The notes: a model not told the origin generated them from the letters alone. 30,097 bases of DNA from a virus (IMGVR_UViG_2724679538_000002), one strand, 5' to 3'. Shown: positions 7,315 through 8,711, counted from the stretch's first letter. Translations and numbers: made by a program.

Positions 7315-7509
7315 ATGCTAAAACAGCAAGATATGACAGAAACGGCGAAAGTTGTTTTTAATGAATTAAGCATCGAACCGGCAACAGTCGGGGAGATTGC
7401 ACAAAACACATACCTTTCACGCGAACGCTGTCAGTTAATACTGACCCAGTTGGTTATGGCGGGGCTGGCAGATTACCAGTTCGGCTGTTACAGACGCCTT
7501 CAGCAATGA
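7315..7509 (+). CDS. small winged-helix-like DNA-binding protein (possibly PapI/FaeA-like)
   Basis: 64-aa ORF with RBS 'aagg'. The pattern 'VVFNELSIEPATVGEIAQNTYLSRERCQLILTQLVMAGLA' is compatible with a small wHTH regulator. Family assignment is a guess. Confidence 0.4.
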   Translation: MLKQQDMTETAKVVFNELSIEPATVGEIAQNTYLSRERCQLILTQLVMAGLADYQFGCYRRLQQ

Positions 7510-7658
7510 AGGGCTTTTAATTTGTGAAAATGGGCGGCTGGTGGGTGTTGGTAGCACCTGCCAGCCATTCGCTCATGCTTACTGGTCACAAGCGAACCAC
7601 GGCCCACTGCTTTAGCGCAAAAGCAGAGTGAGCCTACCAGAGTTACGCTTACTGATCC

Positions 7659-8711
7659 ATGAAAAATACTGTAAAAATAAACAGTGTTGATTTAATCAAC
7701 GCTGATTGCCTGCATTTTATTCAGTCCCTGCCTGATGATTCCATTGACCTGATTGTTACCGATCCGCCGTACTTCAAGGTGAAACCCAACGGTTGGGACA
7801 ATCAGTGGAAAGGGGACGAAGATTACCTGAAGTGGCTGGACCACTGTCTGGCCCAGTTCTGGCGGGTGCTGAAACCTGCCGGAAGCCTTTACCTGTTCTG
7901 TGGACATCGCCTCGCATCTGATATCGAGATCATGATGCGTGAACGTTTCAACGTTCTTAACCATATTATCTGGGCGAAGCCGTCCGGACGATGGAACGGG
8001 TGTAATAAAGAAAGTCTGCGCGCATATTTTCCCGCAACAGAACGCGTTCTGTTTGCTGAACATTACCAGGGACCATATCGCGGCAAAAGTGACGGCTATG
8101 CGGCAAAAGAAAGTCAACTCAAACAGCACATAATGGCACCGCTGATTTCGTATTTCAGGGATGCTAGTGCCGAACTGGGTATAACGGCAAAACAGATTGC
8201 CGAAGCCACTGGTAAGAAAAATATGGTTTCCCACTGGTTTGGTGCCAGTCAGTGGCAGTTGCCGAATGAGGCTGACTACCGGAAGTTGCAGGCACTGTTT
8301 TCCCGTATAGCGGCAGAGAAGTTTCAGGAACAACAACTGGAACAACCACACCACCAGCTGGTGGCATCTTATGATTCACTGAATCGCAAATATTCTGAAT
8401 TGCTGGATGAGTTTAAAACTCTCCGGCGCTATTTCTCCGTATCAGTTTCCGTGCCTTATACCGACGTCTGGACGCATAAACCCGTTCAGTTCTACCCGGG
8501 TAAACATCCGTGTGAGAAGCCTGCGGATATGCTCCGGCAAATAATCAATGCCAGTAGTCGACCAGGCGATCTGGTTGCTGATTTCTTTATGGGATCCGGT
8601 TCCACAATAAAAGCAGCAATGGCGCTGGGGCGTCGGGCGTTAGGTGTTGAGCTTGAGTCAGAGCGGTTTAACCAGACGGTGAAAGAGGTAAGTGAACTGG
8701 TGGGGAAATAA
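7659..8711 (+). CDS. DNA methyltransferase, beta-class amino-methyltransferase (N6-adenine or N4-cytosine)
   Basis: Catalytic motif IV 'DLIVTDPPYF' near the N-terminus and AdoMet-binding motif I 'DLVADFFMGSGST' near the C-terminus. This motif order defines the beta class. Confidence 0.85.
   Translation: MKNTVKINSVDLINADCLHFIQSLPDDSIDLIVTDPPYFKVKPNGWDNQWKGDEDYLKWLDHCLAQFWRVLKPAGSLYLFCGHRLASDIEIMMRERFNVLNHIIWAKPSGRWNGCNKESLRAYFPATERVLFAEHYQGPYRGKSDGYAAKESQLKQHIMAPLISYFRDASAELGITAKQIAEATGKKNMVSHWFGASQWQLPNEADYRKLQALFSRIAAEKFQEQQLEQPHHQLVASYDSLNRKYSELLDEFKTLRRYFSVSVSVPYTDVWTHKPVQFYPGKHPCEKPADMLRQIINASSRPGDLVADFFMGSGSTIKAAMALGRRALGVELESERFNQTVKEVSELVGK

Follow-up and report, generated by a model that had tools for sequence, protein, structure and literature searches.

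A predicted winged-helix gene and a conserved RNA leader accompany a putative M.EcoGII-family adenine methyltransferase in lambdoid prophages

Introduction

M.EcoGI and M.EcoGII are described as non-specific N6-adenine methyltransferases of an Escherichia coli O104:H4 C227-11 prophage in the passages of Murray et al. 2018 (PMC5778455) that deal with them. According to the same passages, M.EcoGII methylates adenine in any context, is unexpressed in the lysogen and is harmful when expressed, and the enzyme of phage 1720a-02 is its close relative. A 2025 review (PMC12707154) puts M.EcoGII in one group with Mu Mom, 'silent in lysogens and toxic'. M.EcoGII is in heavy use for the footprinting of chromatin and RNA, and the literature searched holds no description of its natural control or of its benefit to the phage; the passages of PMC5778455 covered by a term search mention neither a small open reading frame (ORF) upstream of the gene nor a leader. 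Here we analyze a 30,097-nucleotide (nt) stretch of viral DNA (IMGVR_UViG_2724679538_000002, hereafter the window), in which a putative methyltransferase of this family is preceded by an ORF of 64 amino acids (aa) and by a structured spacer.

Pap-type switches depend on a site-specific methylation state, that of Dam GATC sites, together with Lrp. The C proteins of restriction-modification systems are helix-turn-helix (HTH) proteins of the Xre type, which recognise C-boxes lying upstream of the gene that encodes them and regulate a restriction enzyme. In phage Mu, the 62-aa zinc-finger protein Com binds a hairpin beside the translation-inhibition structure of mom, which Com opens (PMC6483171), and in FluMu and Pnm1 non-specific adenine methylases follow com-like genes (PMC3299994). 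An earlier note on the window had likened the small ORF to PapI and FaeA; our comparison points instead, by analogy, to com-mom.

Results

Linkage of the small ORF, spacer and methylase

The element comprises a winged-helix gene under selection, a gene of the M.EcoGII methylase family at a fixed distance downstream and, between them, an RNA leader with compensatory base changes, all positioned behind a tR'-like terminator (Table 1). The earlier note had reported the small ORF upstream of an orphan methyltransferase, and its coordinates, sequence and spacing hold, with a spacer of 149 nt.

Genome loci were taken from contigs representing one genome per species (n = 25 with the small ORF, from about 15 genera). 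The methylase lies downstream in 23 of the 25, at a distance of 142-154 nt in 22; the genera represented include Escherichia, Salmonella, Klebsiella, Citrobacter, Kluyvera, Buttiauxella, Mixta, Providencia and Mangrovibacter. Of the other two loci, L022 is a decayed copy and L029 a spurious archaeal match, the latter to the N-terminus of an unrelated 316-aa protein on a contig from a Micrarchaeota metagenome-assembled genome. The small-ORF frame is broken early in L024. Among viral contigs, the small ORF accompanies 76 of 80 near-identical methylases (97-99% identity), with the remaining four accounted for by one contig end, two 5' truncations and one deletion; it likewise accompanies 76 of 80 members of a methylase clade of ~63% identity, so that the cassette is present in 152 of the 160 viral contigs combined. 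A different region stands upstream of the methylase in L169. The pairing is also found in L190 and persists across different Q families, and every intact small-ORF copy inspected adjoins this methylase family. The homologue search for distant methylase relatives listed only sequences of at least 76% identity and so added nothing to the linkage test.

The same methylase (98-99% identical) is paired with two small-protein alleles that share only 51% identity. In these alleles the N-terminus MLKQQDMTE and helix 3 (RCQLILTQLVMAGL; CQLILTQL.MAGL) are essentially fixed, and the invariance of helix 3 despite allele swapping points to one conserved target. Tight co-inheritance at a fixed spacing supports a functional tie between the small ORF and the methylase. 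The earlier note had proposed that the pair could form an epigenetic control module; the tie to the methylase stands, and the PapI family and mechanism attached to it fall away on the evidence given below.

The small protein

The 64-aa ORF is a genuine gene under strong purifying selection. The median ratio of nonsynonymous to synonymous substitution rates (dN/dS) is 0.08 over 91 orthologue pairs with a mean dS of 1.39, and synonymous codons change along a stretch whose amino acids never do. AlphaFold2 with a 21-sequence alignment confidently predicts a minimal winged helix of three helices followed by a β-hairpin wing (H1-H2-H3-wing; pLDDT 92.3), in agreement with the winged-helix-like core that the earlier note had claimed.

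The protein matches PHROG 331, a phage family of unknown function, over residues 1-63 (hidden Markov model search, E = 5.9e-35). NCBI names it 'TrmB family' or 'DprA-like winged helix'; its scores lie below the Pfam gathering cut-offs for TrmB (PF01978, 16.8 vs 25.6 bits), DprA_WH (PF17782, 17.5 vs 22.9 bits) and MarR_2 (PF12802, 15.5 vs 27 bits). Across 27 diverse family members, DprA_WH matches 23 (best E = 6.3e-6) and TrmB matches 22, and a few homologues carry a precomputed PF17782 match. The small protein appears to be a stand-alone winged helix-turn-helix (wHTH) outside every curated subfamily. It belongs to a narrow family (61 representatives in 1.84 billion proteins), and no description of the ORF was found in the literature searched. 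Most alleles are acidic (isoelectric point, pI, 4.6-5.2; net charge -1.5 to -4.4), one is basic (pI 9.6), and the protein has two cysteines, C39 and C58.

The top Foldseek matches are N-terminal wHTH domains of S-adenosylmethionine-dependent O-methyltransferases (E ~2e-3), and 7wdq from the PDB profile search is likewise of this kind. These O-methyltransferase domains serve dimerisation, not DNA binding. The Z-alpha domain of ADAR1 is marked by an Asn and a Tyr in helix 3 and by Pro-Pro-x-Trp in the wing; on inspection of the sequence the fold is similar and these key residues are missing, and the assignment was rejected. Longer database versions of the protein (94-110 aa, with an N-terminal extension) look like start-codon artefacts, and in the window the upstream frame is separate (7229-7321). 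Two distant matches (P0152 and P0167) are long repeat proteins without a wHTH Pfam match and were discarded. A third long repeat protein (P0127, 5774 aa) contains 19 stretches weakly similar to the small protein (25% identity), which is probably compositional or repeat noise.

The PapI/FaeA assignment does not survive comparison with that family. The window protein has no match to PF04703 at E <= 1, and PF04703 is absent among the 25 families listed for the 27 members; PefI of plasmid pSLT, used as a positive control, matches it at E = 1.7e-23. When the small-protein family profile is compared with PefI by hhalign, the probability is 17.6% over 33 columns of generic HTH core. The PDB sequence-profile search listed 14 chains, none labelled as PapI family, and none was noted among the listed fold matches.

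The methylase

On the evidence of its sequence, the downstream gene encodes an orphan β-class N6-adenine DNA methyltransferase of the M.EcoGII family. The PF01555 match has E = 1.6e-42, and 281 of 349 residues (81%) are identical over the full length to M.EcoGII (sequence taken from the PMC11551740 supplement); the enzyme of phage 1720a-02 is likewise 81% identical. The motifs run from DPPY near the N-terminus (VTDPPYF) through a central target-recognition domain to FxGxG near the C-terminus (FFMGSGST), and the protein is basic (pI 8.4). Its 81% identity to M.EcoGII suggests that the window enzyme is likewise non-specific for adenine context. By eye, no Shine-Dalgarno sequence is present in the 20 nt before the methylase AUG.

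This family membership bears on the epigenetic part of the earlier note, which had looked to methylation-target motifs in the intergenic regions on both sides of the small ORF. With a non-specific methylase the hunt for a target motif is moot and a site-specific heritable switch is implausible. A single GATC (7654-7657), the only one within 7000-7700, was found; it is conserved, stands directly before the methylase AUG and is explained by its being part of the long-range RNA helix described below.

The leader RNA

Conservation is higher in the spacer than in the central part of the small ORF. We aligned 38 distinct leaders from two clades with MAFFT, blind to structure, and folded the alignment with RNAalifold. 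In the resulting fold (S1), 97.5% of cells are paired and 10 pairs show double changes. Of 500 shuffles, no more than 2 reach any one of five pairing measures for S1, and for four of the measures none does; all five lie far above slid controls. Within the long-range helix, three neighbouring pairs change jointly between the clades (GC/AU 19/17, AU/GC 19/10 and AU/GC 21/6). Helix P2 is fully rewritten in some lineages, from GGCTGGTGGGTG/CACC..CCAGCC to GACTGTAAAAGTG/CACTTTTACAGTC, GACAGTGAGGATG/CATCCCCACTGTC or GACCGATGAGTG/CACACATCGGTC. Many pairs are G-U, and the structure is therefore specific to the + strand and acts as RNA.

A covariance model of the leader has a single match in the window (153 bits) and also recovers the leader in loci that lack the small ORF. 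Rfam gives no match in 7510-7658 at gathering thresholds or at E <= 10, ARAGORN finds no tRNA in the spacer, and a literature text search with part of the leader sequence found no paper. A possible coding ORF inside the leader (35 aa, 7524-7631) was rejected, since in L007 and the majority of other loci its frame is interrupted after 7 codons. Our hand-drawn fold (P1b/P2/P3/P4/P5) reached 88.3% paired and was partly replaced by the RNAalifold fold, with P1b and P3 kept as a possible conformer. This alternative shows some covariation and is isoenergetic in the window; S1 is the more stable in 33 of the 38 sequences. The leader may perhaps be a two-state element.

In P4, the outer stem GCTT/AAGC is constant and perfect palindromes of 4-16 bp are kept. 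The centre varies by lineage (GCGC, TGCA, CGCG, GTAC, TCGA) and is always self-complementary, as in L011, L023, L121, L163, L174 and others. A self-complementary centre is superfluous for a hairpin loop, which suggests either a dyad-symmetric double-stranded DNA site for a dimer or loop-loop RNA pairing. We consider P4 the best candidate target for the invariant helix 3 of the small protein.

At the upstream edge of the leader, the stop codon of the small ORF lies in the loop of a hairpin that is kept in most of 24 loci with different arms (CCTTCA/TGAAGG, CCTCCA/TGGGGG, CTGCCA/TGGCAG, GCCTCC/GGAGGC). In two loci without the ORF (L163 and L173), another short hairpin with a U tract occupies this spot, between tR' and the leader. 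We read the stop-codon hairpin as a second, weaker terminator guarding the leader.

Prophage setting and late-transcript position

The window is a lambdoid prophage of Escherichia type. In a near-identical prophage of E. coli CRE10 the window's Q gene is annotated 'antiterminator Q family protein', and in this context it would supply the factor that lets the late transcript pass downstream terminators. The tR'-like hairpin is conserved in the cross-locus alignment, and the records of phages SfV and Ayreon give a rho-independent terminator at the corresponding place. The candidate promoter lies ~85 nt before it, as expected for the pR' of a lambdoid pR'-tR' unit, which we infer it to be.

The first two genes on the Q-dependent late transcript, past the tR'-like terminator, are the small ORF and the methylase; from this position both are late lytic genes. 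Neither in the spacer nor in the stretch from tR' to the small ORF did the promoter scan find a sigma-70 promoter, and by eye there is no credible -10 element 3' of P4. Genes downstream of tR' are expressed only in lytic growth and therefore not heritably. The heritable epigenetic switch of the earlier note thus founders on two counts, a methylase family that is non-specific and silent in lysogens and a late-lytic location. No fimbrial operon is present at the locus; the genes belong to the late operon of a prophage, with Q on one side and the lysis genes on the other.

Of 5426 complete E. coli genomes, 2794 contain DNA that matches the segment 7043-8750, and in 2376 a single place covers at least 80% of the segment. 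Matches extend to 64 phage records, among them SfV (orf47/orf48), cdtI, mEp460, Ayreon, phiP27, 1720a-02 and many Stx2a/2c/2d phages.

Several further observations concern the surroundings. In many Stx2a, Stx2c and Stx2d phages, the cassette of small ORF, leader and methylase lies between Q and stx2A (e.g., phage 1720a-02, locus L003, 3184-5513), so that the late transcript carries it together with the toxin genes. A block at 7240-7300 (CTTGCTGG ... AGAGTTAT.GGTATGTCA), downstream of tR' and upstream of the small ORF, is conserved across genera; the promoter scan gave no convincing sigma-70 promoter in it, and it may be part of the small ORF 5' untranslated region. The KAP-family NTPase on the opposite strand matches the PADLOC candidate defence family PDC-S20 (E = 4e-177), with weaker matches to PifA and QatA. 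A reverse-strand DUF2971 gene occupies its position in L190, so the site looks like a moron insertion site. Relative to SfV, an insert of ~1 kb lies between methylase and holin (8720-9734), replacing a 33-bp terminator segment of SfV. In the early region, an isrK Hfq-binding small RNA (443-519, 67 bits) lies beside a C4 antisense RNA (544-631, 83.6 bits), both on the + strand; these are the only Rfam matches in the window at gathering level.

Table 1. Positions of the cassette elements and of neighbouring features, counted from the first letter of the window.
Feature	Position	Strand	Evidence and remarks
64-aa ORF	7315-7509	+	
Spacer between small ORF and methylase	7510-7658		149 nt
Methyltransferase gene	7659-8711	+	PF01555
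Structured RNA leader of the methylase	7521-7664	+	Alignments, RNAalifold, covariance model
Helix P1a	7530-7535/7571-7576	+	RNAalifold
Helix P2	7536-7547/7555-7566	+	RNAalifold
Long-range helix	7584-7594/7646-7658	+	RNAalifold; ends one base before methylase AUG (7659)
P4 hairpin/palindrome	7605-7630	+	
Alternative pairing P1b	7531-7535/7602-7606	+	
Alternative pairing P3	7570-7573/7591-7594	+	
Hairpin with small-ORF stop codon in loop	7497-7522	+	CCTTCA-gcaa-TGAAGG then U-rich tail; terminator scan
Intrinsic terminator, tR'-like, strong	7166-7194	+	AAACCCGCTGTCGAGCGGGTTT then TTTTT; terminator scan, 9 pairs
Candidate late promoter pR'	7055-7082	+	TTAACT-16-AATAAT; promoter scan, 9/12 matches, weak, consensus only
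Q antiterminator gene	5302-5682	+	PF06530 Phage_antitermQ, E = 2e-51
KAP-family P-loop NTPase	5711-7042	-	Between Q stop codon and late promoter region
ORF in post-methylase insert	8717-9019	+	No family
ORF in post-methylase insert	9016-9540	-	phrog_5663, function unknown
ORFs of unknown function, ~1 kb	3' of methylase		
Holin, lysozyme, Rz	from 9755		After the ~1 kb of ORFs

Discussion

A possible control module and its alternatives

We tentatively propose that the locus is a module that controls a dangerous DNA-modifying enzyme in the manner of com/mom, the winged-helix protein being the factor that acts in trans; we give this reading more weight than any other, and still hold it short of probable. 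The three-part late cassette of lambdoid phages and prophages would carry a non-specific M.EcoGII-family adenine methyltransferase as its payload. Transcription would reach it only when Q-modified RNA polymerase passes tR' and the second hairpin; the positions are observed, and the function is taken from lambda biology. The stable leader fold, in which the long-range helix pairs the 11-13 nt before the Shine-Dalgarno-less methylase AUG, may then hold down translation of the toxic enzyme. The 64-aa wHTH would be a dedicated partner acting in trans on the leader, either as RNA or through the dyad-symmetric P4 DNA, and would set the amount of methylase, a role we infer because of the linkage, the invariant helix 3 and the conserved leader. 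Both the binding of leader or P4 by the small protein and the direction of regulation are conjectural. Finally, progeny phage DNA hypermethylated by the enzyme would be guarded against restriction on entering the next host, a presumed anti-restriction role.

A more specific version of this proposal, in which the wHTH flips the two-state leader RNA (or P4) from a start-pairing to a start-freeing fold, as a non-homologous re-invention of com-mom, strikes us as rather doubtful. If it is true, the phage would release a late-lytic burst of non-specific adenine methylation that is licensed only at the end of lytic growth. The small protein would then represent a new class of wHTH regulator, acting on translation (or by binding a leader), and the leader would be a new cis-regulatory RNA, carried by roughly half of the complete E. 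coli genomes searched and, in many Shiga-toxin phages, located between Q and stx2.

Several observations weigh against control of the leader by the small protein. Three viral loci of the ~63% clade (L163, L168 and L173) keep leader and methylase without the small ORF, which is therefore not strictly needed for that pair to persist. Acidic alleles are unusual for a 64-aa nucleic-acid binder, and to our knowledge winged-helix domains are uncommon as translation regulators. On the RNA side, covariation in P1b/P3 makes the assignment of off and on states uncertain, and because the covariation largely separates two clades the independent events are few. There are also short-form leaders (76-102 nt) that lack P4 and much of the structure.

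The strongest competitor, though we think it unlikely, makes the small protein a protein-protein partner of the methylase, such as a cofactor, a targeting subunit or an antitoxin-like stoichiometric inhibitor, and leaves the braking of translation to the leader RNA alone. The linkage is as strict as a trans-acting factor would show, the acidity of most alleles would suit a basic methylase, the best Foldseek matches are to dimerisation domains of O-methyltransferases, and a small upstream gene followed by a toxic enzyme recalls the order of type II toxin-antitoxin pairs. However, near-identical methylases occur with small-protein alleles that are only 51% identical and of opposite net charge, and the homologue searches turned up no natural fusion of the two proteins. 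The Foldseek similarity, moreover, reaches only E ~2e-3 for a fold that is very common.

Slightly less likely still is an independent job for the small protein, as a late transcription factor for phage or host genes or as an anti-defence factor, with the gene merely co-carried beside the methylase in a mobile module. Such a role would fit the loss of the ORF from loci that retain leader and methylase, its place as the first gene after tR', where it is made alongside all late proteins, and the usual function of wHTH proteins as DNA-binding regulators. Hitch-hiking should, however, leave intact copies elsewhere, and none was found in the fetched loci: the family is narrow, its intact copies there all adjoin this methylase family, the exceptions are truncated or decayed, and the spacing is nearly constant.

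It is improbable that the ORF acts mainly in cis, with terminating ribosomes melting the stop-codon hairpin and so controlling read-through into leader and methylase, and with the protein secondary. A conserved hairpin followed by a U-rich tail does hold the stop codon in its loop, and a hairpin and U tract are retained at that spot in the ORF-less loci; yet the low dN/dS and the confident fold indicate selection on the protein itself. Q-modified polymerase is, in established lambda biology, expected to pass terminators, and would thus ignore this one.

We consider it very improbable that the protein is a regulator of the PapI/FaeA type, one that would sense DNA methylation state together with Lrp and Dam-type sites and set a heritable switch for the methylase, the lysis genes or host loci, since its PapI-like size as a stand-alone wHTH, the adjoining DNA methylase and the one conserved GATC before the AUG are outweighed by the missing PF04703 match, the poor PefI alignment, the lack of a PapI-family chain among the listed PDB matches, a GATC accounted for by the RNA helix, the absent fimbrial operon, the late-lytic locus and a methylase family that the relevant passages of PMC5778455 describe as non-specific and silent in lysogens.

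Comparison with known systems

What is new here is a conserved three-part cassette whose RNA leader is absent from Rfam and from the literature searched, together with the identification of its methylase as M.EcoGII-type. The partner protein and the leader are testable handles on how phages silence and then release a toxic enzyme. As part of the late transcript in many Stx2 phages, the terminators and leader of the cassette may also affect transcription of the stx2 toxin genes.

The methylase resembles M.EcoGII in its β-class motif order, its length (350 vs 349 aa) and its prophage setting. The small protein shares with PapI, FaeA and PefI (PF04703) the form of a small stand-alone winged helix (~65-77 aa) in Enterobacteriaceae, but has no family-level sequence similarity to them, stands in a prophage late operon rather than a fimbrial one and has a partner methylase that is, by family, not site-specific. 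It differs from generic wHTH regulators (MarR, ArsR, BlaI/MecI, TrmB, the IclR N-domain) and from the DprA C-terminal winged helix in falling below the curated cut-offs, in being a bare 64-aa domain without a dimerisation or ligand-binding extension and in being acidic in most alleles. Like the C proteins of restriction-modification systems, it is encoded just upstream of a DNA-modification gene, as a small HTH protein that might time a dangerous enzyme; unlike them, it accompanies no restriction enzyme, has another fold and is followed, not preceded, by the conserved element.

The closest parallel is com-mom of phage Mu. In both, a small gene (62-64 aa) lies directly upstream of a host-toxic, broad-specificity adenine-modifying enzyme, expression would be late only, an RNA structure covers the translation start of the enzyme and the presumed purpose is anti-restriction. 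The parts themselves are unrelated: Com is a CCCC zinc finger (PMC6483171), whereas the window protein is a predicted winged helix with at most two cysteines; com and mom overlap, whereas the genes here lie ~150 nt apart; and Mom and hin1523 are unrelated to M.EcoGII. The relation is thus one of analogy and not of membership, and if our reading is correct the locus would be a second, independent case of a small regulator plus an RNA structure guarding a promiscuous DNA-modifying enzyme.

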